Assembly: GCA_964508125.1 (NCBI GenBank)
Contig: CAZDTC010000001.1
Location: 1-52,615 of the forward strand
Direction of reading: 5' to 3'
Length of the DNA stretch: 52,615 nt
DNA from: an uncultured Candidatus Kuenenia sp.
GTDB lineage: Bacteria; Planctomycetota; Planctomycetia; Pirellulales; UBA1268
Positions 8,113-32,471 of the stretch are shown piece by piece. The notes below the pieces were generated by a model. The model was given only the letters and a program-made list of their open reading frames with translations, searched no databases and was not told where the DNA came from. The first letter of the stretch is position 1. The number at the start of each line of letters is the position of its first letter. A program made the position numbers and the translations under genes.

Positions 8113-8125
8113 CCCTTCCGCCTCA

Positions 8126-11491: not shown

Positions 11492-11584
11492 AATCGCGCT
11501 TTTTTCCCGTCGGTCACGCTTCGCGGCCCCCGAGCGTACTTCCCGTGTCGACCGATATTCGCTCCGACACGATAGGAACCCGCC

Positions 11585-12562
11585 ATGAACAACCGCACTC
11601 TCGCCCTGCTCGTCGCCGCCATCCTCGCAGTGGTCACCATTTTCGGCCTTCAGTCGCAGCAGAGCGCCGTCGTGGTTCGCCCCGTCCCTGCCGATGTGGC
11701 CGCCGGCACCTATGACCGCATCCACCTGAGCGTAGCCGCCGCGACGGCGCGAAACGAGCAGGCTGCCCGACTCTGCGAGAGCGAGATCAACATGATCCTT
11801 GCCCGCGAGTTTCCCGAGATCGAGCGCCGCGGGAACAAGGTCGCCGAGGAGGTCGCAAGCTATGGCTCCTGCTGCACGATCATCTACCGCCTGGCCAAGG
11901 AGAAGCTCGGTTGGTCTTCGAGCACGGCCGACTACGTCGAGGGCGAGATCCGCGGTCGCCTGCAGCCGGCCCTCGACACGTGCGGCCGCGAACTCGACAC
12001 GGCCCTCGACCGCTGTGAACTCGCCCTCAGGGAGAGCACGGTGATGCTGGCGACTGAGCTTGCCCAGATGAGTCCGTCTCGGGCTGACCAGTCGATGAAC
12101 ATCGCCGTGGACGTCCGCACCGGCGGTGACCTTGACCAAGCCCTTCGCAATCTTGGCCTCAGCGGCGGCATTCTCACGGTGAGCGGCGCCTTCGACGTGG
12201 TCGCCATCATGAACACCACCGTCTTCCGCACCATGATCCGCACGATCGTGGAGTTGGCTGCATCCCTGTTCGCCACGCCTGCCGCCACTGCTGCTGGCTC
12301 GGCGGCCGTGGCGGCCGCTGACGGCCCTCTGCCGGTGGGCGACGTCATCGCGGTGCTGGGTGGAGCCTGGACGGCCTACGACATCTACGCAACCCGACGT
12401 GAGTTCGAGCGGGAAATCAAGGCTTCACTCTCGAACGCCCTGCCGGAGATGAAGCGAACCGTCCACCACCAGCTCATGGAGCGACTCCACTCGCTCCAGT
12501 CCGAGTACCAGCGGGCTCAAGACCGGATCCGCAACGAGATGGCCTTGAACCTCACCCGATAG
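11585..12562 (+). CDS. Membrane protein, family A (paralog of 44665..45696)
   Basis: N-terminal TM segment 'LALLVAAILAVVTIFGL', then a helical domain, then C-terminal hydrophobic segments with the conserved 'DGPLPVGDVIAVLGGAWTAYD'. An SD-like 'aggaa' precedes the ATG. Clear similarity by eye to the 44665 ORF. Confidence 0.65.
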   Translation: MNNRTLALLVAAILAVVTIFGLQSQQSAVVVRPVPADVAAGTYDRIHLSVAAATARNEQAARLCESEINMILAREFPEIERRGNKVAEEVASYGSCCTIIYRLAKEKLGWSSSTADYVEGEIRGRLQPALDTCGRELDTALDRCELALRESTVMLATELAQMSPSRADQSMNIAVDVRTGGDLDQALRNLGLSGGILTVSGAFDVVAIMNTTVFRTMIRTIVELAASLFATPAATAAGSAAVAAADGPLPVGDVIAVLGGAWTAYDIYATRREFEREIKASLSNALPEMKRTVHHQLMERLHSLQSEYQRAQDRIRNEMALNLTR

Positions 12563-12572
12563 GAGCCCTTCC

Positions 12573-13484
12573 ATGACCACCTTCAGCCGCCGCCTTGTCC
12601 TCGCGTCGCTTCCCCTGCCGGTGGCGTTTGCCGTCGCCACGTCCGGCGTCGCCTTCGCCGTGCCGGGCGTGGGAACGCTCGTGCGCGAGACCGTGGAAAT
12701 GGCCGTCAAGAAGAGCGGCCGTGAGGTCGTCGAGCGTGCTTCTCGGGAAGTGGCCGAGCAGGCCATCGAGAAGGGTGTGGCGAAGTACGGGCCTCGGGCG
12801 GCCCAGGCCGTCGTCGACGGCGGCATGGAGCTCGTTGAGGCATCCGCGAAGTACGGCGACGACGTCATGCGGGTGGCTGTTGAGGCGACACCAGCGGCAC
12901 GCCGGGCGCTCGCGCTCGAACCGGGCCGGATGCTGCCCCTCGTCCGCGAACTCGGCCAGGAGGCCGTCGAGCTCGAGGCCAAGGCGCCGGGCCTCGCCCA
13001 AAGGGTGTTCACCACCTTTGGCGACGACGGCGCGCGGCAGATCGCCCGAACGGTTCCGGCAGAAGACGTGCCGCGGCTGCTTTCCCACGCCGAGCGGGCC
13101 GAATCTCCGGCTGTGCGTCGCGCACTCCTCGACGCTTACAAGAAGGAGGGGCCCGCGATGTTTGCGAAAATCACGCCCAAAATAGTTGTTGCCATCGGGG
13201 CGAGCGGCGCCCTCGTGTACGGCACTCACCGGATGACCGGTCCGTTCGCTGCCTTGGCCCACTGGATGCGCATCAATCCTGATGCGGCCCGTGACATGCT
13301 TCGGGGGCTTCTTTGGATCATGGGCACGGTCGCCGTCCTGACGACGGTCTTTGTACTGGGATCCTTTCGCCTCACCCCGTGGCACGCTCGACGGCCAGCA
13401 GATCACTGGAAGGCAACAGGCTCAGATCCTACGGGGACTGCAGCGGGGGACCGACGCACCGCTATCGACGGCGTGTCCGGTTGA
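12573..13484 (+). CDS. Membrane protein, family B (paralog of 45708..46628)
   Basis: Signal/TM 'LVLASLPLPVAFAVATSGVAFA', a helical Ala/Glu/Arg-rich domain and two C-terminal TM segments. SD 'aggag' lies 8 nt upstream, directly after the stop of the previous gene. Similar along its length to the 45708 ORF. Confidence 0.65.
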   Translation: MTTFSRRLVLASLPLPVAFAVATSGVAFAVPGVGTLVRETVEMAVKKSGREVVERASREVAEQAIEKGVAKYGPRAAQAVVDGGMELVEASAKYGDDVMRVAVEATPAARRALALEPGRMLPLVRELGQEAVELEAKAPGLAQRVFTTFGDDGARQIARTVPAEDVPRLLSHAERAESPAVRRALLDAYKKEGPAMFAKITPKIVVAIGASGALVYGTHRMTGPFAALAHWMRINPDAARDMLRGLLWIMGTVAVLTTVFVLGSFRLTPWHARRPADHWKATGSDPTGTAAGDRRTAIDGVSG

Positions 13485-13572: not shown

Positions 13573-15153
13573 TCAGCATTGAACTGCATGCCTGATGGCA
13601 TCACACACCCGACGGCAGACGGCGTCCACATGCACGAGGTCGACTGCGGCCTCCGTATCCGACTCTCGATTGTGAGCAAAAGTGTCCCTCGTGATCCGCA
13701 GGCTGTCGAGATCGTTGAACAGCCCTGGAAGGTAGCGAACGGCAGCCGCCACGAGTTGCGAGTGCGCCGCGACGCTCGGCGGGTCACACAGCACCAACGG
13801 CAACAGCCAGATCGTAATACTCTCGCCGAAGCCGCACTTATCGCTCTGGATCAATTGCACGGCCGGAACGATCTTCCTGGCCGACTCGACGCTTCGGCAT
13901 AGGTGCGTAAACGACCCTGCTACCGCCTCCCTGAGACCAATTCGGTCAAAAGCTTCCGTCACATTCCGCTCGCCCACTCGCGACTCGATCACGGCGGCCT
14001 GCTGCTGACGAGGCAGCCGCTGCAATTGCTCCCACCACCCCAGCACATGGTCACGCGACTGGTGCCGCAGTTCGACGCCGATTTGTTCAATCAGGTGCTC
14101 GTATCCAGAGCACGCATCGCGGTACGTGGGTGCTCCGGCCTGCCACTGAACCAGGTTCCTGTGCGGAGTGTCAACCCAGTCCGCTACTATCGGCAGGACG
14201 CTGCGCAGGTCATCCACAGTCCATCCTGCTCTCTTTCGGTGAGCGGTCACGCGACGCTCGAGTTCGGCGGCGCTACCGATAACCGTTGGCAGATGAGACA
14301 TCTCGTAGAGTTCTTGGCAGCGATTCTCCACCTCTGCATACACCTCGGGCACGTTGGTGTTCATCCACTGCCCAAGCCGCTCATCCACCGGACCGTCGGA
14401 CTCGGCCGAATCAGTGTCCTCTGGCAGGCTCACGACCGGTGCATGAAATACAGCCAAAGGGCGATCGCTGACCCGCGGAATCAATACAACTTTGGACCAC
14501 ACGCACGTTCGCTTCCATGGGCCGCCGATGGGCTCGCGAGCCTGATCCCTGAGGATGGATCTGACACGTAGAGCGCCTCGCTCGGGCAACGAAGTGGCTG
14601 GAAGATCAGGAAACGACACATCCGCGCCAGCGTCATCGTCATCGCTCGCTTCATCGTCGTCGGCATCTTCCTCGGAGGCTGCTCCCAGGGGCTCGATCCT
14701 CAAGCTCGGCCAACCCGGCAGCATGCGGAGTTCGAAGTCCAGGTCGACGTCCTTGACGCATGCTCGCATGTCGATCGAAACGCGCGGCGATGGCAGATCT
14801 CGGTCGAGCCAGACGGCAGGCAAGAGGCTGGCTGTATGGGGAGCAACGAAAACCCAGCCAGGCATCAGGGCTCTTCCGGCAATGTGCGAGTCAGAGGCAT
14901 TGCTCGCGACAAACAATTCCTTGCTTCCCTCGACGACCTTGCACAGTTGCTCGTCGATGAGCAGGTTCACCGCGGACTGGACGATGTCCTCGGGAATCGC
15001 GAGTTTCCGGACCATGTCCTGGATCGACTGCGCTCCGGCCTCCATCAAGCGGAGAACGGTCTCCGACAGAAGATCGAGATGATCCTCCGCGTCTATCGCG
15101 ATCTGAACCGGCACTGCCACCGTCGGAATCGAAACCCAAAGCACTTTTCTCAT
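13573..15153 (-). CDS. wHTH-like N-terminus, acidic linker, C-terminal HEPN-like (Rx4H) domain protein
   Basis: The start at 15153 overlaps the helicase stop (ATGA), indicating coupling. The N-terminus 'LSETVLRLMEAGAQSIQDMVRKLAIPEDIVQSAVNLLIDEQL' is wHTH-like. An acidic run 'ASEEDADDDEASDDDDAGAD' follows. The C-terminus 'LRITRDTFAHNRES' contains R-D-x3-H (nt 13672-13689), the HEPN RNase signature. Confidence 0.55.
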   Translation of the reverse strand: MRKVLWVSIPTVAVPVQIAIDAEDHLDLLSETVLRLMEAGAQSIQDMVRKLAIPEDIVQSAVNLLIDEQLCKVVEGSKELFVASNASDSHIAGRALMPGWVFVAPHTASLLPAVWLDRDLPSPRVSIDMRACVKDVDLDFELRMLPGWPSLRIEPLGAASEEDADDDEASDDDDAGADVSFPDLPATSLPERGALRVRSILRDQAREPIGGPWKRTCVWSKVVLIPRVSDRPLAVFHAPVVSLPEDTDSAESDGPVDERLGQWMNTNVPEVYAEVENRCQELYEMSHLPTVIGSAAELERRVTAHRKRAGWTVDDLRSVLPIVADWVDTPHRNLVQWQAGAPTYRDACSGYEHLIEQIGVELRHQSRDHVLGWWEQLQRLPRQQQAAVIESRVGERNVTEAFDRIGLREAVAGSFTHLCRSVESARKIVPAVQLIQSDKCGFGESITIWLLPLVLCDPPSVAAHSQLVAAAVRYLPGLFNDLDSLRITRDTFAHNRESDTEAAVDLVHVDAVCRRVCDAIRHAVQC

Positions 15154-18100
15154 GAATGCACCATCCGGCTTGGAATCACGATGCCGCGGCATCCGTCTGC
15201 CACTTCCTGCTGCATCGCTTCGAACACGCGACGCATCGGGGGCGGCTCGCGTGTCCCGCGAGTCCGGGCTGCGAGGGTGGCCGTGTCGCCGATGATGATC
15301 AGCTGCCGCTGGGCACGCGACATGGCAACATTGATCCGCTGCGGCAACGCCATGAATCCCAGGGATGCGTTCGGGTTGCTGCGGACTGCCGAAAGAATCA
15401 CCAGCGGATATTCCTTGCCCTGAAAGCTGTCCACCGTTCCGATCTCGATCGTTCGCTCGATATCTGGCCTGCCCATCTGCTGCACGAGGGCCTCGATTAG
15501 TTTTCTCTGCTCGCTGTAGAACGCTATGACGCCGATCGTCTTGCGGCCGCCGATTTGTTCCGCGAGCGTGGCAATGGCCTCGGCATCGACGGTCTTCAAG
15601 AGCGTTTCGATAATGGCTACTTCGTACCGGTTGGTTTCATGGCAAGGCCATGCCGGAACCCGACGGATCGCTCGCTGCGTCGGATCGGCCAGCACGTCGC
15701 TCGTATCGATCCAGACCAGGGGATGATTCGTCGCCTTACCCCACACGGGGTCGTCCGCCTCATGCCCCCTGCCAACCACGGGGATACCGAACGACGGCAA
15801 CCGGGACTTCGCTCGCGAGAGGTCGTGCGTCCAATGTGAATCCAGTTTTCCGTCATAGAAAACGTTGCTGATGGTCTGCCCGATGGCCTCATGCATCCGG
15901 TACTGCATCGTCAGGGGGATCTTGTTCTCGCTCGGCACTCGTGCCCAAAGCCATTCAAAGAAGGACTCCCGCTGAAGATCGACTTCGCGTCCTTCCTCCA
16001 TCTGTTGCGCGATGAGTTTGTCCACGTGCGGAGGCAACTGCTGCTGGTCGCCGATCAGCACCACGGATCGCCCAAGTGTCATTGGGATGAGGATGTCGAT
16101 GCCTGCCCGGGCCGCCTCGTCGATGATGACGACGTCATAGCCATCATTGACGCCCACTCGTGGTGCAGCCGACCGTTGACACGTCGCGGTTGAAACCGGA
16201 GCATGCCTCGCAAACACCTTCTCGAGCCGCCTGGGCTCATCCCGAAGCGCTCTGATCCATGAGTAGATCACGGCAGGCTCACCCGTTGCGACCTCGCTCT
16301 TCGCGTGCTCAACGCAGCCCGCAGCGAGGCCCATCCACTCCACGACGTCTCTCTCCACCGGGGCCCAATGATCCTCGTATGCAGCCTGACTGTCATCCTC
16401 GCGTTCCGTTGACAAGGCCGCCACCGTGCGTTCGATGAGCCCCTGCCACGAGCTGACCACATCCGCCGGTACGGAGTCGCTCAGGGCGAGGCCGAGCTTC
16501 ACCGCGAGCGTACGCCACTCCTTGGCCAATGCTTGGTGCGCGACAGGCGCCTCGAGAAGCGACTTCCACGCATCGGAAGCGGACCTCACCGTGTCAGCAA
16601 CCTGCTTGGCTGCATCGGCGGCGGTCGTGGCGGGAGATGCGGAGAGCCGCACCAGTAATTCCGTCACGGCCGAGCCGCCCGTCACCTGCACGACGATCGA
16701 CGGCTGCTGCCGGCGCTCGACATCGGCCTGTATTGCCCGCCGCATCGACGACTCTATCGCCGCCAGCTTCTGCACCAGCAGCGGCGGCAACTCCGTCGCC
16801 TCCTCGGTCGCAGCGATCCCCACGAGCTCGGCAACGACAGCCTCGTTCACCTTGCGGGCGGCGACTTCATGCCGCAGCGTGCGGATCCGATCCCCGAGGT
16901 CGCTCAAGCGGAGAAAACTGATAAACCGCGAGTCCCCTTCCACGGTCGCCTTCAACCGGGCGACGATACGCGCCGCCTCGCTGAGGAACCGCCGCGTCTG
17001 AGCGACACGGTGCCTGTTTTTGCGATCCGAGCCAAAATCCGCGTAGACCTGCACTTCGTCGCCGGAAAGTTTCTCGATCGCGTTGAGGACCGCATCGTTC
17101 TGCACGCTGGTCACGAGCACGCGCAGTGGACCGCCTTCCTCCTCCCGTCGATTCCTGTATCGCCGCCGCAATGCGTGAATCAGCTCCACGATCACGCTGG
17201 TCTTCCCCGTGCCGGGCGGTCCTTGGACCAGGAATAGGCCCGGTTGCTGCACCGCCCGCTGGATGGCCCCCTTCTGGGCGTCGTTCAGCGGTGGCGATCC
17301 TTTTCGTGACTCGTACTCGTTCTTGGGCGGCGAGACCGGCGTCACCGACGACGGGTCGGAAACGTACTGCAGCATTTGCGGACAGGCCGCCGCACCCGTC
17401 CGCAGTCTTGTGATCGCTTCTTCCCGCCGTCTTCTCTGGGCTGCGTCACCGGCATCCTCGGCCGCGATCAATCGCCCTCGCGCGAACGGTGCTTTGCCAT
17501 CTCGTATGCGTATCGTCGCCACAGTACGTCCCGCGTTGGCGTCCTCGGCAAACGCCACCACCTCGGCCGCGATTGGATCGGCGTGGGAGTCACCTGCTTC
17601 GAGTGAATGCATCTCGACCATGCCCTTGACGCGCACGCCCCGCCGCAGATCGAAGTTATCACTGGCAATCCATCGCTCGATGGCTTCGCGTGGGCTGGCC
17701 ACATTGACTCTCCACGTGTCACCCGCCGCCTGCCCGACGACCTCGAGGTAATCGAGCGGCGTGCTCGCCCGCGATTCAAAAGTCCCTCGTTCTGCCGCCT
17801 TTGCGATCATCTCGTATTCCAGCCATGCATCTAGGAACGGGTGCGGCCGGGGCCTGAAGGTCGAAAGGTCCGCGAACCTGATGTTCTGCTCCGTCACAGT
17901 GAATACCGGCGGCTGCGACACCGCGATCAGTCGTGCCTCGGGAATGGCCGTTGGTCGATCCTGAATCTCCTCGACAACTAGGTACTCCGCGCCACGACCA
18001 CCTCCCACGCGACACGCCAGCCGCTTTCGATTTGCGAGATACACGTATATCCGCAACGCATCGGCCGACGACGACTCGATCGACCCGAGCAGGGGCGTGG

Positions 18101-18584
18101 CAACTACCATGCACGTCGCCTGCCCATCATTCAGAACCGATTTCTGCCTCGCGAAATCCAGTGCGTGCTGCGTCGTGGCAAAATTCCCAATTTGCGGCAG
18201 CATCTTCTCGTCGATGACGACTGTCGGCCCGGCTTCCAGACTGTCGGGCAACATCGTGCGCATGAGGGACAGCATCGCCTCGGTCGGGCCGCCATCATCT
18301 GCATCCCGCGACTGAACCTCGATGCGCTTTAGCAATCGGCCGGACACGTCCTTGAGGGCCCGCCTTGCCTGTCGCTCGTCGGACTTCCGCCCGAACTCGA
18401 TCGGGAACGCCTGCCCTGCAACCACGGCCTCGATCCGCCTGCCGTCCCGCACATCGACCCAGCCGGTGCCGACGGTTACCCGCCGGTCCTTGGGACCGAT
18501 GGCTGGCAGATCGATGCGTACCGACCACGTCTGCTCGTAGCCCAGACTAAAGTTGAGAAATTCACCCCCGGGGATTCCTGCCAT
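15150..18584 (-). CDS. Upf1/Dna2-like superfamily 1 helicase (AAA_11/AAA_12 type) with ~450-aa N-terminal region of unknown fold
   Basis: Motif I 'GPPGTGKT' (nt 17199-17222), II 'VVIIDEAARA', III 'LIGDQQQLPP', IV 'MQYRMHEAI', V 'VDSFQGKEYPLVILSAVRSN', VI 'RINVAMSRAQRQLIIIGD'. The start at 18584 has SD 'AGGAGGT' 8 nt upstream and lies 2 nt after the upstream stop. The ORF-track start at 18644 is probably too early. Confidence 0.85.
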   Translation of the reverse strand: MAGIPGGEFLNFSLGYEQTWSVRIDLPAIGPKDRRVTVGTGWVDVRDGRRIEAVVAGQAFPIEFGRKSDERQARRALKDVSGRLLKRIEVQSRDADDGGPTEAMLSLMRTMLPDSLEAGPTVVIDEKMLPQIGNFATTQHALDFARQKSVLNDGQATCMVVATPLLGSIESSSADALRIYVYLANRKRLACRVGGGRGAEYLVVEEIQDRPTAIPEARLIAVSQPPVFTVTEQNIRFADLSTFRPRPHPFLDAWLEYEMIAKAAERGTFESRASTPLDYLEVVGQAAGDTWRVNVASPREAIERWIASDNFDLRRGVRVKGMVEMHSLEAGDSHADPIAAEVVAFAEDANAGRTVATIRIRDGKAPFARGRLIAAEDAGDAAQRRRREEAITRLRTGAAACPQMLQYVSDPSSVTPVSPPKNEYESRKGSPPLNDAQKGAIQRAVQQPGLFLVQGPPGTGKTSVIVELIHALRRRYRNRREEEGGPLRVLVTSVQNDAVLNAIEKLSGDEVQVYADFGSDRKNRHRVAQTRRFLSEAARIVARLKATVEGDSRFISFLRLSDLGDRIRTLRHEVAARKVNEAVVAELVGIAATEEATELPPLLVQKLAAIESSMRRAIQADVERRQQPSIVVQVTGGSAVTELLVRLSASPATTAADAAKQVADTVRSASDAWKSLLEAPVAHQALAKEWRTLAVKLGLALSDSVPADVVSSWQGLIERTVAALSTEREDDSQAAYEDHWAPVERDVVEWMGLAAGCVEHAKSEVATGEPAVIYSWIRALRDEPRRLEKVFARHAPVSTATCQRSAAPRVGVNDGYDVVIIDEAARAGIDILIPMTLGRSVVLIGDQQQLPPHVDKLIAQQMEEGREVDLQRESFFEWLWARVPSENKIPLTMQYRMHEAIGQTISNVFYDGKLDSHWTHDLSRAKSRLPSFGIPVVGRGHEADDPVWGKATNHPLVWIDTSDVLADPTQRAIRRVPAWPCHETNRYEVAIIETLLKTVDAEAIATLAEQIGGRKTIGVIAFYSEQRKLIEALVQQMGRPDIERTIEIGTVDSFQGKEYPLVILSAVRSNPNASLGFMALPQRINVAMSRAQRQLIIIGDTATLAARTRGTREPPPMRRVFEAMQQEVADGCRGIVIPSRMVHS

Positions 18585-18586
18585 GC

Positions 18587-21500
18587 TTACACCTCCTCGT
18601 ATGGCTGGATGACGGCGACGCGCTCGCCCCGCAGCGCTTCGCATAGCAGTGCGGCCACCTCGGTGGGAGTCGCCGGCGCTTGCCTATCGACCGAATAGCG
18701 GGTCTTCAGTTCTGGCGCCTGTCGCGCGGCGTTCTCGATGGCGTGGGCGAGTTTGGCCATGCGGTCGCTGCCAGCCTTATACATTCCGCCATCATCCTTC
18801 CCCCTGCGCCGCAGCAGGGAAAAAACGACCATAGAAGCCTCGGTCAGGACCTCGGCCCGCTGAGCGTTCATGCCCTGCGGATCATCCGCCAGACCGGAAA
18901 CCACCGCTTCGCATGCAGCGAGTATGCGGTCGCACAATGCGGCAGACAGTGAGCCCACCATGCCTTTTCGCCTGAACAGCGCGAGCGCAAGGCACCAGGC
19001 GCACGCTTTGATGCGGTTCCAACCGGCCCTGCTGCACGCGGACTCCATTTTCTCGACCAGCCATTCGACGGCCGGCTCGCACGCCATCGGCTTGCGACCA
19101 TCCAACAGCCGCCCCAGTCGATAAAAATCATCGTCGTGCGGGTTCGGCAGGGCACGGACGTGAGCGAACTCCACGACCAACCAGTCTTCGGGCACATCGT
19201 GACGGAGCCGCGAAAGGATGGTCCTGAGACGTGACTGCAGCTCGCCCAGCTTGTTCCGATACTGCTCGTTTCCGCCGCTCAGAAAACTCCTCGGCATGGT
19301 CGCGGCCCGACTACCAAGTTCACTGGTATTGAGAAGTTTGGTGCACCACGGGAACACTTTTTCCTGAAGTTGCTTCCCGAGTTGGGGATTGGGTTCTTCC
19401 GCCCTGCCGTTGACCCATACCGCTCGCACTCGCTCGTCTAAGACCTCCGCTGCATCGATGCACCTGGTGATCTCAGCGACCACGTGATCCGTTCGTTGCT
19501 GCCTGTGCACGAGTTGCCCATTGGCATCGCTGAACACGGACTTGCAGGTGCGCTCGAATTCATCGATCGCGTGCATCACCGCGTCGATGTCATCGGACTT
19601 CGCATCTTTCCACGACAGGCTGGGCGGATACGCCGGTTCGCTGTTGTCGAGTTTTCTTTCACGGTCGGGCGCTCGCGTGCCGGCTCGCGCCCAGGTCACG
19701 TCGAGGGAATCGAATGGCGCGTTGCCGCTGGGAACGAACCGGATATGGAATCCATCCACCGCGTGTCGGTAGCTGACGTGGGCCCTTACGACCACGGCCT
19801 CGCGCAATGGAAAATGTCGCTCTGATTCGAGGCGCGCCTCGAACGCCAAGGAAATCCGACTGTCTTTGTCACGAACGAGCGGCAGCAGGTAGGCCTGCTG
19901 GTCGGGCGGAAGCCTGAAGTCCTGGGTCGGCGGTTCCTGCACCGCCTCGCCAGGACGCACGCTCCGGCGACGAAACAACTGGATCACTTGCTGGCCGGAA
20001 ACGAAGTACAGGTCCGGCACGATGTCCAGCCACGTGGGCAGACCGCGCGACCGCCGGTGGATGTACTCCGCCGCTCCCTTGACGACGTCGTTGACCGGAT
20101 CTGCGGCGAACGTGCATGCCCACCCAGGATGACGGTGCCGCAGGGCAGCGAGTACCGCGCGTTGGATCGCGGGCCGCTCGAACGGGCGGCCGACAAAGTG
20201 CCACCGGACGCGGCTCCCCCCGGCCCGGGAGTCGAGGCTTTCACGGCTCGCAGAATTGCTCCACTCCGAGAGCCAACGCTCGAATCGACTGATGAAGTGC
20301 TCATCCGCCGCATCCTCATCTTCCGCACGACAATGGACCCGATGCCACGCAGGAGGCCCTGCGTCATCCGCCGCCTGGATCCAGCACCAGTTGCCAGCCT
20401 CCCAGAGGTCGCGATCACATATCTCCCTCACAAGCGATTCAGCTTCATCGTCTCCCTGTTCCTGCGATTGCGTCCTCAGCCCCAGCGATCCTGCGACCGC
20501 TGCCCGGGCCCGTGCGGCGAGCCACGTGGATGCCGTGGCCTCCCGAGCCGGGGGCAGTTCCTCCGCCACGGTCGCGCGCTCCCAATACAGCCGATCGTCC
20601 GAGGATTTCTCGTTCTGTTCGAAGCGAGCCACGAGCGGCACAGGGGCGAGGCCCGTCGCCTCACCATCGACGACCACGAACTGGTCTCCATCTTCGACCA
20701 CGGAAGCGGAATCCGTCGCTCTCCACCGCAGCGCGGCCGCGACCGAACGCCAGATGAGCGTCGCCGTGCCAGCGGTCGCCGGCAACGCCGATCGAACGAC
20801 CTGGCAGTCCATCTCGTCGAGCTCGTCCGGAATCGCTACCGCCCATTCGGCGGCAGGGACGGCATGCGCGGCGACGGTGCTGAAAATCGTCCGCAGTGCC
20901 CCTTCGCGGGGCAGATCCTCGGTCGTGACGGGCAGCAATCGGCGGATGAAGTGCGACGAGCAGGCAGCGTTGGCCCGCGGCGCACGCGCCGCCTCGTCGC
21001 CCCCCACCCAACGTTCGGCCCCTTGGATCAACCACCTCGCAGCTGCCGCCGACCCACAGATTTCCACTCGTTCGCCTGGGCAGCCCGCGATCCGCACTCC
21101 CGCCCCGAACAGGTCGGCACCGAGCGCCGCATGCAAACCGTTTGGCTGTGATACACCGACCGGCTGCGTCCATTCCGACACGAAGCGGGGCATTTGTCCG
21201 CGAGGCTTACCGCTTGCCCCAAGCATCTCGACGATCCACGTCGCACAATCCGCAAGCCCGCCTGGCACAGAAAACGCTGGTGACGAATCGACCCACTCTT
21301 CCGCCATCATCGTGCATGCGAAAGTTGTGCCGGCAGCGTGCTCGGCATCACGTTCGAGGAACTCGAGGCGTACACTCGCATGCTTGGGAGCCTCCACTGC
21401 CGAGCCCGGTGATTGGATGGGCCAGCAGTGGAAGTTGATGCCTGCCCCGGACTGGCCGATGCTGATCGCCATCCCGCTGGTCTCGTACAGATTGCACAGC

Positions 21501-22468
21501 CATTGCCGCCCACCCGTCAGTGCATCCACCCGACCGCCGGGCGTCATCTGCACCCATGTGCTGGTGAGATGCGTATCCGCGCGTCGCCACAGCGACGCTT
21601 CGACCGCCAACATCACGGCGGCCGCGAGCGCTTCTGTGCCGCGTGCCCAGAGCGCTTCGAAATGCTCCTCCCGTGTCCGCAGCCAATTCGCGAGTTTCCA
21701 TACCCGCCTGTAGTCCCGGTCCCCCAGCAAGACGTTGTTGGGAATGAGGCTCATCGCAGGCCGAACCGTCGCCAGGGGCGACCGCTCGAACTGCTCGCGA
21801 CAGATATGCCGGAGGGATTCGAGTCCAGCCTCGAGGGAATCTTTCAGGCCACTTCCCTCGTCGCGACGCACCAGGTTCGCGTTTCGCCGAGCGAGAATGT
21901 TTTGGACGTCCCCGATCACCCGGCACACGACGCGATTCTCGTGGGTGTCGGGCACCCATGGCCGCACCACGCCGAGCATGCGCCTGCCGTGTGCCAGTTT
22001 TTCTCGTACGGTCGCTCCCGGCCGCTGGGTAAGCCAGCGGAGCCCCCGCACGTCGACTTCCCGAACCTTGGACAGCCCCAACACCGCGTGCTGCCGCCGC
22101 ATCCGGTGCCGCGGCTCCCTGATGATCTGGGCGATCGATTGGGCCGCCCAAGCAGCGACCCGGAGCGACGCATCGATCGGATCTGAGCCTTGGCCTGGGG
22201 CTTCCAGCAGTCGGGCGGTAACTCGCCGCAACGCCTCGCTGGCTGGTAGAAACACCGCGTTGGCGGTATCCGGATCGATCTCCGCGACCCTGCAAAAGAA
22301 GTCCTGGAGCCCGAGCAACGCTCTACCGTGGGCAACGCGGTCAGTCTCCGACGCTGGCACGTCGCCTGACTCGATGACCCGCAACGGGAGCGGTTGGCTC
22401 TGCCATGCCGACCCGGCGTCCACGGCCGCCTGCCGCTCCTCTTCTCCGCGACGCGAGTCGGTCACCAT
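18587..22468 (-). CDS. Giant McrC-N-terminal-like protein (~1293 aa) with a degenerate Hsp70/actin-like segment; no PD-(D/E)xK motif recognised
   Basis: 'VREVDVRGLRWLTQRPG...VRPWVPDTHENRVVCRVI' (DTHENR at nt 21932-21949) matches the McrC/DUF2357 'D-T-x-E-N-R' region. Residues ~470-900 (nt ~19860-21154) carry DnaK-like strings: 'AVAIPDELDEMDCQVVRSALPATAGTATLIWRSVAAAL', 'FVVVDGEATGLAP', 'VVKGAAEYI'. The start is set at the Met 20 nt after the upstream stop, preceded by a purine-rich SD-like stretch. Confidence 0.55.
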   Translation of the reverse strand: MVTDSRRGEEERQAAVDAGSAWQSQPLPLRVIESGDVPASETDRVAHGRALLGLQDFFCRVAEIDPDTANAVFLPASEALRRVTARLLEAPGQGSDPIDASLRVAAWAAQSIAQIIREPRHRMRRQHAVLGLSKVREVDVRGLRWLTQRPGATVREKLAHGRRMLGVVRPWVPDTHENRVVCRVIGDVQNILARRNANLVRRDEGSGLKDSLEAGLESLRHICREQFERSPLATVRPAMSLIPNNVLLGDRDYRRVWKLANWLRTREEHFEALWARGTEALAAAVMLAVEASLWRRADTHLTSTWVQMTPGGRVDALTGGRQWLCNLYETSGMAISIGQSGAGINFHCWPIQSPGSAVEAPKHASVRLEFLERDAEHAAGTTFACTMMAEEWVDSSPAFSVPGGLADCATWIVEMLGASGKPRGQMPRFVSEWTQPVGVSQPNGLHAALGADLFGAGVRIAGCPGERVEICGSAAAARWLIQGAERWVGGDEAARAPRANAACSSHFIRRLLPVTTEDLPREGALRTIFSTVAAHAVPAAEWAVAIPDELDEMDCQVVRSALPATAGTATLIWRSVAAALRWRATDSASVVEDGDQFVVVDGEATGLAPVPLVARFEQNEKSSDDRLYWERATVAEELPPAREATASTWLAARARAAVAGSLGLRTQSQEQGDDEAESLVREICDRDLWEAGNWCWIQAADDAGPPAWHRVHCRAEDEDAADEHFISRFERWLSEWSNSASRESLDSRAGGSRVRWHFVGRPFERPAIQRAVLAALRHRHPGWACTFAADPVNDVVKGAAEYIHRRSRGLPTWLDIVPDLYFVSGQQVIQLFRRRSVRPGEAVQEPPTQDFRLPPDQQAYLLPLVRDKDSRISLAFEARLESERHFPLREAVVVRAHVSYRHAVDGFHIRFVPSGNAPFDSLDVTWARAGTRAPDRERKLDNSEPAYPPSLSWKDAKSDDIDAVMHAIDEFERTCKSVFSDANGQLVHRQQRTDHVVAEITRCIDAAEVLDERVRAVWVNGRAEEPNPQLGKQLQEKVFPWCTKLLNTSELGSRAATMPRSFLSGGNEQYRNKLGELQSRLRTILSRLRHDVPEDWLVVEFAHVRALPNPHDDDFYRLGRLLDGRKPMACEPAVEWLVEKMESACSRAGWNRIKACAWCLALALFRRKGMVGSLSAALCDRILAACEAVVSGLADDPQGMNAQRAEVLTEASMVVFSLLRRRGKDDGGMYKAGSDRMAKLAHAIENAARQAPELKTRYSVDRQAPATPTEVAALLCEALRGERVAVIQPYEEV

Positions 22469-22488
22469 GCTTCTTTTCCTCTGGCCGC

Positions 22489-25308
22489 TCACGCCCCCAG
22501 GCTCTTGTCCTCGAGGTAGCTCGAACTGCACCAGACGAACTGCCCGTCTCCGGCCTCGCACGCGCGCTTAAAATCCTTCTTGAGTTCGGGCGTGTGGGTA
22601 TAGTCGTCCAGAACCTTGTCGATCAGGTCGAGGCAGCGACGGCCGGCACCCGATTCGACCGTGATGCCCCGCAGTTTGGGCATCACCTTCTGCGCGAGCT
22701 GATCCTCGAACGCCGACTTCCAGGCATCGCCCGAGACCGTTCCAGCCACGTCGGGATGGTTGGCGACATACCGCTCGGTGATCTGCAGTATGCGGTGGGC
22801 GACGGCGCGATTTACCAGCCCCAACGCGTCGTTGATCCGATCGAAAGCCGCCTTCAGACGACTTCGCACGTCTTGTTCGAGCGAGTCGTTGCCTCGCTGC
22901 CACGTTTCCCACGTCCCGGTGGCCAGACGGTATTTCGCACGTGGGGCAAGTGAGCTCTGATCCCGCGTCACGAGCTGCCTCGGCCGCGGGAAGTAGATCA
23001 CGTTCGCACGGTCGAGAACTTTGTCGGAAAGCGTGTTGGTCGACTCGTCCTCGTTCACCGTGCCCACGAACAGCAGGTTCGAGCCTAGCGGCACCTCGTA
23101 GGGCTCCATGCCGGAACCGATATCGACGGGCATGCGTGGCGTCTCGCCGTCGTGCCGCCGCCCCTCGAGTCGGCTCAGCAGCTCGCTAAAGTACAGTTCC
23201 ACGCGGGCCAGGTTCATCTCGTCGAGCATGACCACCAGCATCCGCTCGTCGTCCTTTCGGGTGCATCCGGCAAGCGCCTGAAGCAACTGCGTCGGCTTGA
23301 ACTGCCCCGAGAGGTAGTCGAAGAAGCCGAACAGGTCCGTCGGTGAGTCCCAGTTCGGAAGCACCGGCACGGGCATGAACTCCATTCCACCGAATCGGGC
23401 ATAGAGTTTCGGCAATTCCGACTTGCCCGTGCCGCTGACGCCCGCCAAGACGGTCAGCGACGACCAGTCGGCGATCTTGAGCGACGTGTGAAAAGCCTTC
23501 AACAGGCGATCCGGAAAGCGGAAGCCGCTCTCTGCGATCCCTTGACGGACGCTGTCGAGCCACTCCGCTTCTGCGGTGACCGTGCCGACTGTGTCGATCT
23601 CGCACAGCCCCGACACCGACTGCTCGATCGCGCCGATCCGGGCGTCGCGGCTCGACCCCTTTTCTTTGCGGTCACGGTCCTCCCGCAACCGCTCGATCTG
23701 CCCGCGGATCTCCGCGGCCTCGGCTTCCAACGCCTTGACCTTGCCCTGACGCCCGGCAACTTCCGCCTCGGCGGCCCGCACTGCGGCGAGTGCCTCCCGT
23801 TCTTCGTCCCGCAGGTCCTTCAGGCGGTTCGACAGGCCCTCCATCTCAATGCGATGCCGGCTGATATCCCCTTCCAGCTTCGTGATCTGCAGTTCGCGGT
23901 CCCGGATCCCGGCGCCGCTCTCGATGTCCTTGCGTTGCAACGCGACATGCTCCCGCTTGAGGCCGTCCAGGGCCGCCGCGGTCTCTTCGAGCAATCGCTC
24001 TGACTCCTGCCGCTGGCGCACGGCATCGTCAAGGGCCCCTTGATGCTCGAGTTTGACCTTGTCCCACAAGTCGGCATAGCGACGCGCGTGGGCGTCCTCG
24101 AGCAACTGCTCCTTGGCGTGCAGTTCGCGGCCCCGCTCCGCAAGGCTCTGCTCGATTTCCTGCTCCCGCTCCTTGACTCGCTGCCGTTCAGAAGCGACCT
24201 GTTCGCTCCGTTCCTCGTAACTGCGTTCCCGCACCGTGTGGGATTCGAGCAGGTCCTCGAGTCGCTTGATCTCGCCGTCGCGCTGAGTGAGATCACCAGC
24301 GAGCCTCTCCTTGTCTCGCTGAAGCATCTCGATCTTCCGTGCGGACCTGTTGAACCTCTCCAGAGCGTCCCGCCGTTCCCGGTCGAGATCGGACACATCC
24401 TTCTCCAGCTTCGCGACCTGGGCACTCAACTGAGCGGCGTCCACGTTGGCCCGCTGCACGGTGTCATAGCGGTCCCGCAATGCCCGCAAATCGTTGACTT
24501 CCCGCGTCGCTTCCTGGAGGTTCAGTTTGAGCTGCTCGACGTTCCCGATCTCGGCCCGCAACTGCTCGAGATTCTTCTTCAGCGAAGCCTTCTGATTTTC
24601 GAGTTCACTGATGTCCCCGAGCCCATGCTGGGTTTTGTATGACTGCAGTTCCCGCTGGGCGAGGATCGCCTGTTCCTCGGCATTGACCTTCTGCGAGCGC
24701 AGGTCGTCCCGCTCCTGCTCAAGCACCGCAAGCCGCTGCCGCAGCTGCTGGATCGTGCCCGGCTGGTACTGCACGACGTGCTCTGCCTGCTGATCGCTAA
24801 TCTCGATCAGCGCGGCCAGCACCGCCTCCGTGCGAGTCCGCTTCTGCTCGATCCCCTCGTGTTCCTGCTTTGCTTGCCGGACGAGGCTTTCGATATCGTT
24901 CCGCAACGCAGTGGCAGCGTCGCGCAGATGGCCGTCGATCTCCAACGCACGACCGTCAAGCAGGTCCTTCAATCGGCCGTCGATCTCACGATACCGACCC
25001 TCAACCCGCGTTGCGACCGTTTCGGCCTCCACCCGCGCCTTTGCCATTTCCTCGCGGAGCGTGCCCTGCAGTTCCTCCCTGAGGTCCTGCAGCGACGGCC
25101 CTTCGTCACGCTCGTTCGACCGCCACGCCACGAGTTCATCGCGGAGCAGCTTCAGCTGCTCCGCGACCGCATCCTGCCCACGACGTGCCGCGTCGACGAT
25201 TGACGCAATCGATGCCTCAACTCCGAGAGCCACAGCTTGCTCTTCAGGGCCTGCTGAACTTGAGAACTCTGGTGACGAATCGTCGGCCATGCGATTGACA
25301 GCTTTCAT
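22489..25308 (-). CDS. McrB-family AAA+ GTPase with ~550-aa N-terminal coiled coil
   Basis: Residues ~45-555 are continuous heptad-like Glu/Arg/Leu/Gln-rich sequence. The C-terminal AAA+ domain has Walker A 'GVSGTGKS' (nt 23419-23442), 'NWDSPTDLFGFFDY', Walker B 'VVMLDEMNLARVELYFSELLSRLE' and the McrB signature region 'VGTVNEDESTNTLSDKVLDRANVI'. Confidence 0.8.
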   Translation of the reverse strand: MKAVNRMADDSSPEFSSSAGPEEQAVALGVEASIASIVDAARRGQDAVAEQLKLLRDELVAWRSNERDEGPSLQDLREELQGTLREEMAKARVEAETVATRVEGRYREIDGRLKDLLDGRALEIDGHLRDAATALRNDIESLVRQAKQEHEGIEQKRTRTEAVLAALIEISDQQAEHVVQYQPGTIQQLRQRLAVLEQERDDLRSQKVNAEEQAILAQRELQSYKTQHGLGDISELENQKASLKKNLEQLRAEIGNVEQLKLNLQEATREVNDLRALRDRYDTVQRANVDAAQLSAQVAKLEKDVSDLDRERRDALERFNRSARKIEMLQRDKERLAGDLTQRDGEIKRLEDLLESHTVRERSYEERSEQVASERQRVKEREQEIEQSLAERGRELHAKEQLLEDAHARRYADLWDKVKLEHQGALDDAVRQRQESERLLEETAAALDGLKREHVALQRKDIESGAGIRDRELQITKLEGDISRHRIEMEGLSNRLKDLRDEEREALAAVRAAEAEVAGRQGKVKALEAEAAEIRGQIERLREDRDRKEKGSSRDARIGAIEQSVSGLCEIDTVGTVTAEAEWLDSVRQGIAESGFRFPDRLLKAFHTSLKIADWSSLTVLAGVSGTGKSELPKLYARFGGMEFMPVPVLPNWDSPTDLFGFFDYLSGQFKPTQLLQALAGCTRKDDERMLVVMLDEMNLARVELYFSELLSRLEGRRHDGETPRMPVDIGSGMEPYEVPLGSNLLFVGTVNEDESTNTLSDKVLDRANVIYFPRPRQLVTRDQSSLAPRAKYRLATGTWETWQRGNDSLEQDVRSRLKAAFDRINDALGLVNRAVAHRILQITERYVANHPDVAGTVSGDAWKSAFEDQLAQKVMPKLRGITVESGAGRRCLDLIDKVLDDYTHTPELKKDFKRACEAGDGQFVWCSSSYLEDKSLGA

Positions 25309-25713: not shown

Positions 25714-26823
25714 TCAGGGTTTCAGGCGAGGGCGCCGTTCCTGTAGCCGCATCTTCTGCGAAAAGAACTTCAGTGCCTCAATGTTTCCTGGACTGAATCC
25801 ACTGCCCGCCGTGCTTATCCGCTGAAGCCGTCTAATTTCCGTGCAAAGCGATCTGCAATCGTAAGACTCCAGGAGACGAACCGCCCGGGAACCTAAGTTT
25901 TCAGCGACCGCTGCGTTCTTCCGTTGCTCACCAGTTCGGTGCTCGCCCACCACCGAGAACAACACCGCCTTCTTTCTCAAAAAAAGGATCTCGCTGATCG
26001 TATTCCGACCAGCCCTAGCCACAACAACCTCGCAATCATAAACATCTCGCGCCATTGCAAGTTTCTCTACAATCACAACGTTCGCAGGCACGCCCCCTTC
26101 TGCGTAAGGAAACCGAGCGCCCGACAGAAATACTTTGAAGACTAGGCTGGCCTCGTATCGCGCGACGTCCAGAACAACACGAAAAAATGCCTGGCACGAC
26201 TCGTGGAAGGCGCTCGTGGCACACGTAGTTCCGCCTCCAAACACGACAGATACGACGTTTGATCTCTCGACAGACGAAAGCGCCAGAACCTCCCTGCGGA
26301 TAATTGTGGATGTTGAAAGCACGTTGCTTTCTTCCACCGCGAGTGGCTCCAGCCCGTGGACAATCCGATAGTCAGAGGCTCCGTAGCAAAAACGAAAGAA
26401 GGCGATCGTACTGGGAGGAAGTTGGGCGTTACACCAGTCGGAAGGGTTCATTACGCTGACAATGGGAACGCCGGGCAGACCGACCTTGATCGCGAGCACC
26501 ATCAACGGTTCACCATCGATGACAACACAGTCAATCCGCAACGTCCTCACCAACTCGAGGATTCGTTCGGCACTGGCGGAGACCGGCTGAATCCCCAGAG
26601 ACATGATGTCTTGGCGATCAACCTGCACAGCGCACTGTGCATGCAACGCTGCAAGATACGCAAGGCCGTTGCCGTAGGTCACGAAAAAGCAACTCACATC
26701 AAACGACTCTTCAAGCGACCTCGCAAGCTCAACTGACGCAACGACACGACCGAGACCTGGAGTACCCCTTAAGACAAACAAGAGCCTCTGGTGCTGGCTC
26801 ACTGCACAATCTCCAAAGGGCAT
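25714..26823 (-). CDS. Glycosyltransferase (GT1/GT28, MurG-like fold)
   Basis: N-terminus 'LLFVLRGTPGLGRVVASVELARSL' and C-terminus 'VVVARAGRNTISEILFLRKKAVLFSV' fit the GT-B UDP-glycosyltransferase pattern. The start at 26823 has 'aggaa' upstream. The gene lies in a lower-GC patch. Confidence 0.6.
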   Translation of the reverse strand: MPFGDCAVSQHQRLLFVLRGTPGLGRVVASVELARSLEESFDVSCFFVTYGNGLAYLAALHAQCAVQVDRQDIMSLGIQPVSASAERILELVRTLRIDCVVIDGEPLMVLAIKVGLPGVPIVSVMNPSDWCNAQLPPSTIAFFRFCYGASDYRIVHGLEPLAVEESNVLSTSTIIRREVLALSSVERSNVVSVVFGGGTTCATSAFHESCQAFFRVVLDVARYEASLVFKVFLSGARFPYAEGGVPANVVIVEKLAMARDVYDCEVVVARAGRNTISEILFLRKKAVLFSVVGEHRTGEQRKNAAVAENLGSRAVRLLESYDCRSLCTEIRRLQRISTAGSGFSPGNIEALKFFSQKMRLQERRPRLKP

Positions 26824-27407
26824 CCGTTCCTGACCCACTTCTCTGCCCACTCTGAGACATCCCTGCCCGACATGGAAGTCGTATCGAGCACGACGGTCTT
26901 CGGGTTACTCTTGAAGTAGTGCGAATAGTATGGCAACCACTTTTCGACCCATTGCTCCATCCCGCGACGCCGCCGGTCGTCTGCTCGGATTCTTTGCAAA
27001 ACAATGTCGATATGTGCATCCAGATAAAGAAGTCTGTTGCTGCGACAGCCTCGAAGCCTATGCAGACTCTCGCCAAACTTGCCTTCTACGTCCCAATTAG
27101 CCCCAATCGTCCGCGGATAGTGAAGAAAAAAGAACTCCTTCACTTCGGGGCCCCGGATCGTGAAAACTTGCTCGTAGCGTTGAAGTCGTTCCCACCGCGA
27201 ACACTCGAAATCTACGTACCAATCCTGAATACGATAGAAGTCTTCCTCGCAGGACAGAGCGAGACCACTCTGCTCACGCTTTGCACGCAGTTCCTTGTGG
27301 CCCTCCTCCTCGAAACACCCTGCACTAGGAAAAGCCTGCTGCAAGCTCCTCACAAGAGTCGACTTGCCAACGCCGTGGGGCCCCTCGATCGATACAACGA
27401 AAGCCAT
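26799..27407 (-). CDS. P-loop kinase (deoxynucleoside/nucleotide kinase-like)
   Basis: 'MAFVVSIEGPHGVGKSTLV' P-loop at the extreme N-terminus (nt 27357-27383), as in dNK/thymidylate-kinase-type enzymes. Size is ~200 aa. A strong SD 'aaggaga' lies 8 nt upstream. Confidence 0.6.
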   Translation of the reverse strand: MAFVVSIEGPHGVGKSTLVRSLQQAFPSAGCFEEEGHKELRAKREQSGLALSCEEDFYRIQDWYVDFECSRWERLQRYEQVFTIRGPEVKEFFFLHYPRTIGANWDVEGKFGESLHRLRGCRSNRLLYLDAHIDIVLQRIRADDRRRRGMEQWVEKWLPYYSHYFKSNPKTVVLDTTSMSGRDVSEWAEKWVRNGCPLEIVQ

Positions 27408-27622
27408 CGGCGCGTTCTCCTTACACGGTGCTTACTTGCTGATACTCGCGTTCCTCGCATCGAGGTAGCTTGCCCCCTCAAGCGACTCCCCCTACGCTAA
27501 GGGGAGCCGCCGTTTCGTCAAGCGTCACCGTGGCAGCAGATCCGGGGTGCATCTTCCAACCGCCCGCAGCTCTAGCATTCGCAAAACGCGGTCTCCAAAC
27601 CCAATCTCTGGGATGTTGAGCG

Positions 27623-28579: not shown

Positions 28580-28786
28580 ATGCGGATCGTGGAATACAAC
28601 GGCGCGCCCGTGAAGCGGCAGACGAAGATAGGCCCGGACCAGATCAAGGTCGTCTTTTACGACCGTGCCCCCATCATCGTGACCTCGCAGCAGTGGGCTC
28701 AAAACGCCCGCGACCGCTTCTTCGACGACCCGGCGGTTCGCCGCCGTGACGTGGTCCGGCCACCGGCTCGGCGGAGCTGGTGGTAG
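28580..28786 (+). CDS. Small hypothetical protein (68 aa)
   Basis: The ATG is preceded by 'gggag', and the ORF lies immediately upstream of the SNF2 gene. There are no motifs. The coding status is uncertain. Confidence 0.3.

Positions 28787-28946: not shown

Positions 28947-32467
<3,521 letters not shown>

Positions 32468-32471
<4 letters not shown>

Follow-up and report, generated by a model that had tools for sequence, protein, structure and literature searches.

CoCoNuTs are a large and mostly uncharacterised class of McrBC-derived systems that are predicted to restrict RNA (PMC11090510). Experimental support for them comes so far from one seven-gene Type II locus, the Obs locus of Pseudomonas aeruginosa, which blocks RNA phages and also one DNA phage (bioRxiv 10.64898/2026.04.06.716636). 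In this study, we analyzed a stretch of 52,615 nucleotides (nt) from an uncultured Candidatus Kuenenia sp. (assembly GCA_964508125.1, contig CAZDTC010000001.1, positions 1 to 52,615; hereafter, the window), which carries the four genes cnuB, cnuC, cnuH, and cnuE on its minus strand. The locus is probably a four-gene CoCoNuT defence operon. Its nearest described type is Type III-A, and it falls into a small branch whose two two-gene modules have changed places (cnuB-cnuC-cnuH-cnuE, or B-C-H-E).

In the published classification (Bell et al. 2024, PMC11090510), the CnuB proteins of Type II and of all Type III systems have N-terminal coiled coils, and Types II and III show a "nearly completely conserved" association with the CnuH helicase and the winged helix-turn-helix (wHTH) effector CnuE. 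All CnuC homologs of these types lack the PD-(D/E)xK catalytic motif, and Type III-A has Hsp70-like nucleotide-binding and substrate-binding domains (NBD/SBD) in place of the nuclease domain. A coiled-coil McrB without a helicase is the arrangement of Types I-A and I-C, while Type I-B, also helicase-less, has the coiled coil on a separate protein, CnuA (PMC11090510). An earlier note on this DNA, made from the sequence alone, had placed the operon in the CoCoNuT (McrBC-derived) class, and the class is borne out by the GTPase with its NxD motif and coiled coil, the DUF2357 partner, and the CnuH/CnuE pair. The same note had called two features unusual. One of them, the coiled-coil McrB in the company of a helicase, is the norm for Types II and III. 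The other, the missing PD-(D/E)xK nuclease in the McrC-like protein, is a correct observation according to Pfam and motif searches, but it is not unusual because all Type II and III homologs lack this motif. Given the statements of Bell et al. on these types, both features are the defining norm of the class. The features that prompted this analysis are thus ordinary and leave the picture of CoCoNuTs unchanged; the real deviations are those of a rearranged, reduced Type III-A variant.

Four long open reading frames (ORFs) fill positions 13573 to 25308 of the minus strand and encode proteins of 939, 1293, 1144, and 539 amino acids (aa), the lengths of CnuC and CnuH being counted from the ATG starts of the public gene calls. 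An alternative GTG start of cnuB gives 914 aa, the length also found in the database gene call, and the maximal ORF of cnuC, which begins with GTG, has 1324 aa. cnuB and cnuC are separated by 20 nt. At the cnuC/cnuH junction, the stop codon TAA is followed by 'GC' and then by the ATG of cnuH, which leaves a gap of 2 nt, and the Shine-Dalgarno sequence AGGAGGT of cnuH sits within the 3' end of cnuC. The stop codon of cnuH overlaps an in-frame ATG of cnuE as ATGA. The four genes are translationally coupled. All of this agrees with the earlier description of four tightly coupled minus-strand genes, including the helicase start 2 nt after the previous stop with its AGGAGGT and the ATGA overlap with the wHTH gene. 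The products that had been named there were also recovered: the McrB GTPase with a coiled coil of ~550 aa (~520 aa in our analysis), the ~1290-aa protein with 'DTHENR' (1293 aa, with DTHENR inside the DUF2357 match), the Upf1-like superfamily 1 (SF1) helicase, and the wHTH/HEPN-like protein, for which we found a weak wHTH signal and an invariant R-x4-H motif. The B-C-H-E cassette, with its order kept, was found again in relatives at 45-96% identity, where the flanking genes differ. Because the cassette recurs with changing flanks, these ORFs are real genes that form a mobile unit and not chance ORFs in GC-rich DNA. A promoter and terminator scan of the operon gave nothing above the shuffled expectation, and a lookup of the exact CnuE sequence returned no protein record.

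The C-terminal GTPase domain of CnuB contains a Walker A motif (GVSGTGKS, K629), a Walker B motif (VVMLDEMN, D696/E697), and the signature G-T-V-N752-E-D754-E. The NEDE string is kept in 31 of the 32 nearest cluster representatives checked, and the single exception (P0040) has NQDE, which still conforms to NxD. A shortened NxD(+E) motif defines the branch of McrB GTPases that contains the CoCoNuTs (Bell et al., eLife 2024, PMC11090510). A profile of the domain, compared with all PDB sequences, matched only Thermococcus gammatolerans McrB (6UT3/6UT5, E 2.5e-4). The AlphaFold2 (AF2) model of the domain has a predicted local distance difference test score (pLDDT) of 91, and Foldseek retrieved AAA+ proteins of the MoxR/dynein/McrB group with it, including the McrB proteins of Escherichia coli and T. 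gammatolerans. McrB cannot be told from MoxR by the fold alone; the distinction comes from the sequence profile, the NxD motif, and the partner gene. The GTPase was also checked for falling outside the McrB family, and by PDB profile, NxD motif, and structure it stays inside. The GTPase domain was searched alone because a word search with full-length CnuB was swamped by the coiled coil (six true matches and one artefact). The exhaustive search gave 965 cluster representatives at E<1e-30, and the best 150 of these are mostly 700-1050 aa long with the GTPase at or near the C-terminal end. A fusion of an HTH domain to the C-terminus of CnuB is reported for many Type III-A members (PMC11090510). 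The GTPase domain of the window CnuB reaches the end of the protein, which would leave no room for such a fusion.

The region preceding the GTPase domain consists of E, K, R, Q, L, A, and D residues to 72% and has only 2 prolines in 520 aa. Its hydrophobic autocorrelation peaks at lags 7 (0.215) and 14 (0.118), and it matches only the coiled-coil parts of SMC, JetC, and LmuB models. The coiled coil was judged by composition, autocorrelation, and model matches.

CnuC begins with the McrC N-terminal domain DUF2357 (E 1e-6, 28.6 bits against a cutoff of 23.3), which holds the invariant 'RPWVPDTHENRV'; DTHENR corresponds to aa 174-179 (nt 21932-21949). Residues 320-400 of CnuC are rich in beta structure. 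A word-based search found seven homologs of CnuC. No Pfam nuclease domain and no CPxC motif was found in CnuC, and there is one CxxC in its 1293 aa. We propose with moderate confidence that CnuC has an Hsp70-like NBD/SBD region with degenerate ATPase motifs and a helical domain in place of the nuclease. Between aa 445 and 830, degenerate versions of the Hsp70 phosphate and adenosine motifs can be recognized by eye (GADLFGAG, AVAIPDE...IWRSVAAAL, VVVDGEATG, and WHFVGRPF), and the NBD-like motifs are followed by an interdomain-linker-like string, DIVPDLYF. In a Foldseek search of the PDB with the AF2 model of aa 271-1293, ranks 1 to 15 were all Hsp70, DnaK, or Hsp110 proteins, covering NBD and SBD (E 2.5e-8 to 5e-5, 440-675 columns). 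The C-terminal helical domain is HEAT-like in the published description (PMC11090510). Three sequence blocks (DUF2357; 'AVAIPD...VVVD'; NBD-C/SBD) are common to the window CnuC and all CnuC proteins examined, suggesting that all of them are of the CnuCD type.

These features bear on whether the locus could be a classical modification-dependent Type IV system that cuts modified phage DNA as McrBC does. A McrB-family GTPase and a partner with the McrC N-terminal domain would be expected of such a system, SF1 Upf1-like helicases are able to act on single-stranded DNA, and the Type II relative blocked one DNA phage too. We nevertheless regard this explanation as very unlikely: the GTPase motif is NxD and not NxxD, the N-terminus of CnuB is only a coiled coil without a DNA-reading domain, CnuC has neither a PD-(D/E)xK domain or motif nor a zinc ribbon, and the only recognizable nuclease motif of the operon is the HEPN R-x4-H of CnuE, which is of the RNase type.

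CnuH matches AAA_11 (E 3.6e-32) and AAA_12 (E 4e-41) in Pfam and the IGHMBP2 family in NCBIfam (E 1.5e-59), and its helicase motifs are intact (GPPGTGKT at 455, IIDEAARAG at 820, VDSFQGKE at 1051, and NVAMSRAQ at 1085). Walker A and motif II are ~360 aa apart, and the AAA_11 match spreads a 257-position profile over aa 453-874 (numbering of the 1164-aa ORF); the insert corresponds to the published large helical insertion. In Type III-A, the N-terminus of CnuH contains an SmpB-like OB fold (SPB) and a RelE-like (RTL) domain (PMC11090510). phmmer alone found similarity between the window CnuH and canonical CnuH only from aa ~350-430 onward. When the alignment of seven clade sequences was compared with that of 57 canonical sequences, the N-terminal regions matched with an hhalign probability of 97.4% (E 1.1e-11, 363 columns, 18% identity). 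A homolog search seeded with the CnuH N-terminal alignment returned no matches.

The check with defence-finder models that the earlier note had suggested was made with PADLOC. It gave hits outside the CoCoNuT class by name: the candidate model PDC-M26A for CnuB (1e-31), the Mokosh helicase MkoA for CnuH (8.3e-110), and MkoB for the CnuE N-terminus (2.1e-5). A literature search for 'PDC-M26' found no entry. Automated defence finders would probably label the locus a partial Mokosh and/or a PDC candidate and not a CoCoNuT. The Mokosh hits raise the question of two independent adjacent systems, a nuclease-less McrBC-like cnuBC pair and a Mokosh type I-like cnuHE pair. Mokosh alone gives defence, the order of cnuBC and cnuHE differs among lineages, and CnuH-like helicases with downstream wHTH-effectors exist outside CoCoNuTs (Bell et al., PMC11090510). 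We consider two systems unlikely, however. The two modules occur together in nearly all of 80 related loci in either order, and in the window they are joined by the 2-nt cnuC/cnuH gap with the Shine-Dalgarno sequence inside cnuC. Furthermore, CnuC has no nuclease, so that cnuBC alone would be left without an effector, CnuH lacks the kinase domain of type I MkoA (no Pkinase match in Pfam), and CnuE has a HEPN motif and not a phospholipase D (PLD) nuclease.

CnuE aligns with 60 canonical CnuE proteins over nearly its whole length (hhalign probability 98%), with window aa 10-534 placed on canonical positions 25-503 of 714. The wHTH region is the strongest part of this match; it also gives a Pfam HTH_9 signal below the cutoff (E 1.1e-3) and the MkoB N-terminal match mentioned above. 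All seven clade members have R[DN]xxxH in the C-terminal helical domain without variation, and none of the other R-x-H and R-x4-H strings is conserved. The region of R502-x4-H507 falls in the hhalign match to the canonical part with R-x4-H (H475 in the Vibrio locus L052), although the residue pairing was not displayed. The second, RxH-type HEPN is absent from the window CnuE, since the alignment stops at canonical position 503. No HxK(x)4D (PLD) motif was found in CnuE. To our knowledge, the HEPN R-x4-H motif is known only from RNases.

A GTPase-profile scan limited to one genome per species gave 80 related loci, whose ORFs were searched with the four window proteins. Two layouts were observed: H-E-B-C in most loci and B-C-H-E in the nearest relatives of the window. 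Nearly all of the loci have both modules, cnuBC and cnuHE, whichever the order, and either order is found in different lineages; cnuBC and cnuHE therefore appear to be separable cassettes. The type was assigned from hallmarks of loci close in the GTPase tree, namely upstream genes for PP2C and a kinase, a CnuC that contains a cold-shock domain, and a CnuE with R-x4-H and a C-terminal RxH. The H-E-B-C loci that were checked show the features given by Bell et al. for Type III-A. In the H-E-B-C Vibrio locus L052, PP2C and protein-kinase genes lie upstream of cnuH, and Pfam finds a cold-shock domain in CnuC of L052 and L027. The 60 canonical CnuE proteins are mostly ~650-750 aa long and have the conserved R-x4-H (H475 in L052) and a C-terminal RxH (R681 and H683 in L052, whose CnuE has 714 aa). 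According to Bell et al., the TerY-P triad (VWA, PP2C, and a Ser/Thr kinase with a zinc ribbon) is near-universal in Type III-A but not part of its core, 'most' Type III-A CnuCD proteins have one or more cold-shock domains, and CnuE has two HEPN domains (PMC11090510).

The B-C-H-E layout is shared by loci from Pirellulaceae (L003, 62% GTPase identity), Myxococcota (L005), Bradymonadaceae (L006), Gaiellales (L007), and an Enterobacterales metagenome-assembled genome (MAG; L012), by the metagenomic locus L002, and by the partial loci L004 and L008. A neighbor-joining tree built from 81 GTPase domains places the B-C-H-E loci in a single clade nested among loci with Type III-A hallmarks, and the sister of this clade is a small group that includes the H-E-B-C loci L009, L010, and L017. 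The cold-shock-domain columns of the CnuC alignment are gaps throughout the B-C-H-E clade, and Pfam finds no cold-shock domain in the window CnuC. L006 and L007 have PP2C and kinase genes directly upstream of cnuB, and L003 is without them. Among the window genes there is no Pfam match to VWA, PP2C, or Pkinase, and phmmer searches of the six-frame window translation with the PP2C and kinase proteins of L006, L007, and L052 gave no match. The clade is rare: a word search of 5.8 billion proteins found 6-7 relatives each for CnuB and CnuC, and a metagenome scan found 8. It is known almost entirely from metagenomes and MAGs.

Several points weigh against the assignment to an RNA-targeting system close to Type III-A. 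The type was taken from the hallmarks of loci close in the GTPase tree and not from a tree with published Type II and III references. The second HEPN, the cold-shock domain, and TerY-P are absent from the window, and the gene order differs. For the Hsp70-like region, the Foldseek TM-scores are ~0.2 on a model with pLDDT <50 over most of that region (56 overall for aa 271-1293). An alignment of 71 CnuC sequences, compared by hhalign with E. coli DnaK, whose sequence was verified against the PDB, fell into the same register with a non-significant E of 0.09. The Pfam HSP70 domain was found neither in CnuC nor in the CnuC proteins of seven relatives, and a CnuC profile compared with PDB sequences gave no Hsp70 match. 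CnuE has no HEPN profile match in Pfam, and its designation as a putative HEPN protein is transitive, through the motif and homology to proteins published as HEPN. Finally, RNA targeting is a prediction for the window locus and for Type III CoCoNuTs generally.

The B-C-H-E branch might represent a CoCoNuT subtype that has not been described so far and that reduces Type III-A to a minimal form. We put this forward tentatively, with a conviction that stops a little short of even. The putative members are the window, L002-L008, and L012, from Pirellulaceae, Myxococcota, Bradymonadaceae, Gaiellales, Longimicrobiales, and Enterobacterales MAGs and from metagenomes. In such a subtype, the modules would be swapped, CnuE would have reverted to a single, presumably homodimerizing HEPN, the cold-shock domain would have been lost, and the TerY-P switch may be dispensable in some members, including the window. 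No self-contained Hsp70-type CoCoNuT would then be smaller than this 11.7-kb four-gene cassette, whose minimal size would ease cloning and dissection and make it a handy test bed for RNA targeting. A sheet named 'Type IV-A CoCoNuT' is present in the supplementary workbook of PMC10542128; the name occurs in the text of neither the preprint nor the eLife version.

The most likely function of the operon is a predicted RNA-targeting defence or abortive infection. As read from the protein sequences, GTPase, helicase, and putative HEPN domain all have intact catalytic motifs. From McrBC structures and the published model, CnuB would assemble into a GTP-driven hexamer, with DUF2357 of CnuC stimulating its GTPase. 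Target recognition could fall to the CnuH N-terminus together with the Hsp70-like and helical segments of CnuC, and the target may be RNA or ribosome-associated. CnuH would translocate along RNA and would be coupled to CnuE through a contact between the wHTH and the helical insert. Csm6 and other single-HEPN RNases act as homodimers. Because CnuE has one HEPN domain only, it would have to dimerize to build a composite HEPN site, while a canonical Type III-A CnuE could pair its two HEPN domains intramolecularly. CnuE would then cleave viral and/or host RNA, leading to phage restriction or to growth arrest (abortive infection), and the window copy would operate without the kinase/phosphatase/VWA switch of TerY-P. 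Type II CnuE also has one HEPN (PMC11090510), and Mokosh, which has the closest characterized relative of the CnuH helicase, depends on its ATPase as well as on its nuclease (Millman et al. 2022).

A combination of an Hsp70-like factor, a Upf1-like helicase, and an RNase could also be read as a housekeeping or stress machine for RNA or ribosome quality control. The domain set resembles eukaryotic nonsense-mediated decay and ribosome rescue factors, and links to transfer-messenger RNA and the ribosome were stressed by Bell et al. (PMC11090510). A housekeeping role has, in our view, very little chance of being correct. The cassette is patchy and as rare as described above, its flanks vary among relatives, it lies in a defence-island locus near a recombinase, and its Type II relative defends against phages. 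The coordinates of the operon and of its surroundings are collected in Table 1.

Table 1 Positions of the cnuBCHE genes, their protein regions, and neighboring features in the window (AF2, AlphaFold2; RM, restriction-modification; SAM, S-adenosylmethionine)
Feature	Position	Strand	Description
cnuB	22489-25308	-	Coiled-coil-fused McrB-like GTPase, 939 aa; six homologs, 61-96% identity
CnuB coiled-coil region	23629-25188	-	aa ~41-560; composition and heptad periodicity
CnuB AAA+ GTPase domain	22489-23628	-	aa 561-939
cnuC	18587-22468	-	CnuCD-type McrC homolog; 1293 aa from ATG 'MVTDS'
CnuC DUF2357 (McrC N-terminal) domain	21599-22411	-	aa ~20-290; Pfam PF09823
CnuC Hsp70-like NBD/SBD region	19589-21136	-	aa ~445-960; Foldseek on AF2 model and motifs by eye
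CnuC C-terminal all-helical repeat domain	18587-19588	-	aa ~961-1293; AF2 pLDDT mostly 70-94
cnuH	15150-18584	-	Upf1-like SF1 helicase, 1144 aa (full ORF 1164 aa)
CnuH N-terminal region	17223-18584	-	aa 1-454; diverged counterpart of canonical SPB/RTL/stalk region
cnuE	13573-15192	-	wHTH and putative single-HEPN effector; 539 aa, or 526 aa from ATG at 15153
CnuE elongated wHTH region	14782-15153	-	aa 14-137; weak HTH_9 and MkoB N-terminus matches
CnuE C-terminal helical domain	13573-14295	-	aa ~300-539
Putative HEPN catalytic motif R502-D-T-F-A-H507	13672-13689	-	In CnuE C-terminal helical domain
Large serine recombinase	12-1769	+	Contig start
GIY-YIG/NUMOD1 endonuclease-like gene	1952-3478	-	
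Converging six-gene operon	4681-13484	+	Two genes with family matches, four without
CARF-RelE-like gene	4681-6150	+	PADLOC 3e-50; Pfam Cas_APE2256
1121-aa protein gene	8126-11491	+	CARF-Lon-like N-terminus (6e-53); weak Cas10 palm at aa 911-1011 (4e-6)
Genes upstream of cnuB	25714-28414		Glycosyltransferase-28-like (-), P-loop nucleoside-kinase-like (-), divergent radical-SAM gene
RM-like set	28746-38475	+	SNF2-family helicase with NOV_C, DUF1156 methyltransferase-like, DUF499
Two CsgG-like lipoprotein genes	38488-42021		Follow the RM-like set; also cassette neighbors in L002

The window is a defence island with the CARF-RelE and CARF-Lon/Cas10-palm genes, a pVip-like gene, the DUF1156/DUF499/SNF2 set, the recombinase, and the GIY-YIG gene. 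The recombinase and the GIY-YIG gene would fit a contig that is, as a whole, a mobile defence island. The tail-to-tail arrangement with a plus-strand operon that the earlier note had described was confirmed: 88 bp separate the cnuE stop codon from the end of the last plus-strand gene, at 13484. No family match was found for the other four genes of this operon. The 1121-aa CARF-Lon/palm-like gene is without a CRISPR-Cas context, and the operon may be a stand-alone cyclic-oligonucleotide signaling system. A pattern of CARF genes in the vicinity of Type III-A CoCoNuTs has been published (PMC11090510). The CARF/palm neighborhood is common to the window and its close relative L002 but not to more distant clade members; a dedicated functional link between CARF/palm genes and the CoCoNuT is therefore unsupported. 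The H-E-B-C locus L064, from a Cloacimonadota MAG, has a homolog of the window CARF protein (4e-27) right after cnuC (14698-15831, plus strand), which is an independent CARF-CoCoNuT juxtaposition. In L002, which is 84% identical, cnuBCHE is flanked on both sides by copies of a gene pair (4100-6110 and 19143-21147, both on the minus strand) homologous to the window genes at 11585-12562 and 12573-13484 (E 1e-109 to 1e-147), which stand on one side only in the window. The arrangement has the look of a duplicated pair or of a target-site-like repeat that surrounds the cassette. Upstream of cnuB, the radical-SAM gene matches prokaryotic viperin (pVip; 6e-10), and a radical-SAM gene near the cassette is also present on the contigs of two relatives. 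In the RM-like set, the first two maximal ORFs overlap by ~1.3 kb, and the true start of the DUF1156 gene is therefore probably near 32.4 kb.

The locus indicates that TerY-P, cold-shock domains, and the second HEPN can all be missing from the Hsp70-type (Type III-A-like) architecture, which then consists of a bare four-gene cassette. Since its halves are permutable, the McrBC-like and Mokosh-like parts appear to be modules that can be separated yet stay together.

Among the described systems, canonical McrBC from E. coli and T. gammatolerans (PDB 6UT3-6UT8, 6HZ4) shares with the window locus an AAA+ GTPase of the same family and a DUF2357 partner. It differs by its NxxD motif, its DNA-reading N-terminus, which is replaced by the coiled coil in the window, and its PD-(D/E)xK nuclease, and the window adds the helicase and HEPN genes. 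Mokosh type I (MkoA/MkoB; Millman et al. 2022) also has a Upf1-like helicase gene followed by a gene for a wHTH-type N-terminus with a nuclease, and both it and the window CnuHE are predicted to sense phage RNA. Unlike the window, it has a Ser/Thr kinase in MkoA, a PLD nuclease in MkoB, and no McrBC-like partner. [quoted passage not shown] There, however, CnuD is encoded by a separate gene, CnuC keeps an inactivated nuclease fold, and the effectors are Vsr-like (fused to CnuH) or contain two PLD domains. With CnuC and CnuD fused and a HEPN-type effector, the window locus was ruled out as a member of these types. Type II has in common with the window a coiled-coil CnuB with NxD, the pairing of CnuH with a CnuE that has one HEPN of the R-x4-H type, and a CnuC without an active nuclease. 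In its CnuC, however, an Ig-like beta-sandwich, a PD-(D/E)xK fold that is inactivated, and a CPxC zinc ribbon are retained, and TerY-P and an RtcR-like CARF regulator usually lie upstream. Membership in Type II was ruled out because the window CnuC has no zinc ribbon and has the Hsp70-like region.

The closest system is Type III-A. The earlier note had considered that the locus might map cleanly onto a defined subtype; Type III-A is the subtype it maps to, but the match is not clean. The order is B-C-H-E instead of H-E-B-C, and the window CnuE of ~540 aa has one HEPN, whereas canonical proteins of ~650-750 aa add the C-terminal RxH HEPN. The cold-shock domain is missing from CnuC, and the N-terminus of CnuH is remote at 18% identity. 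TerY-P, which is near-universal in Type III-A, is missing from the window, though PP2C and kinase genes are retained in the clade members L006 and L007. With Type III-A, the locus shares the coiled coil and NxD McrB-like GTPase of CnuB, a CnuC that appears to be composed of DUF2357, an Hsp70-like NBD/SBD, and a helical C-terminus without nuclease or zinc ribbon, a CnuH with a large helical insert, a putative wHTH-HEPN effector with R-x4-H, and a defence-island setting with CARF genes nearby.

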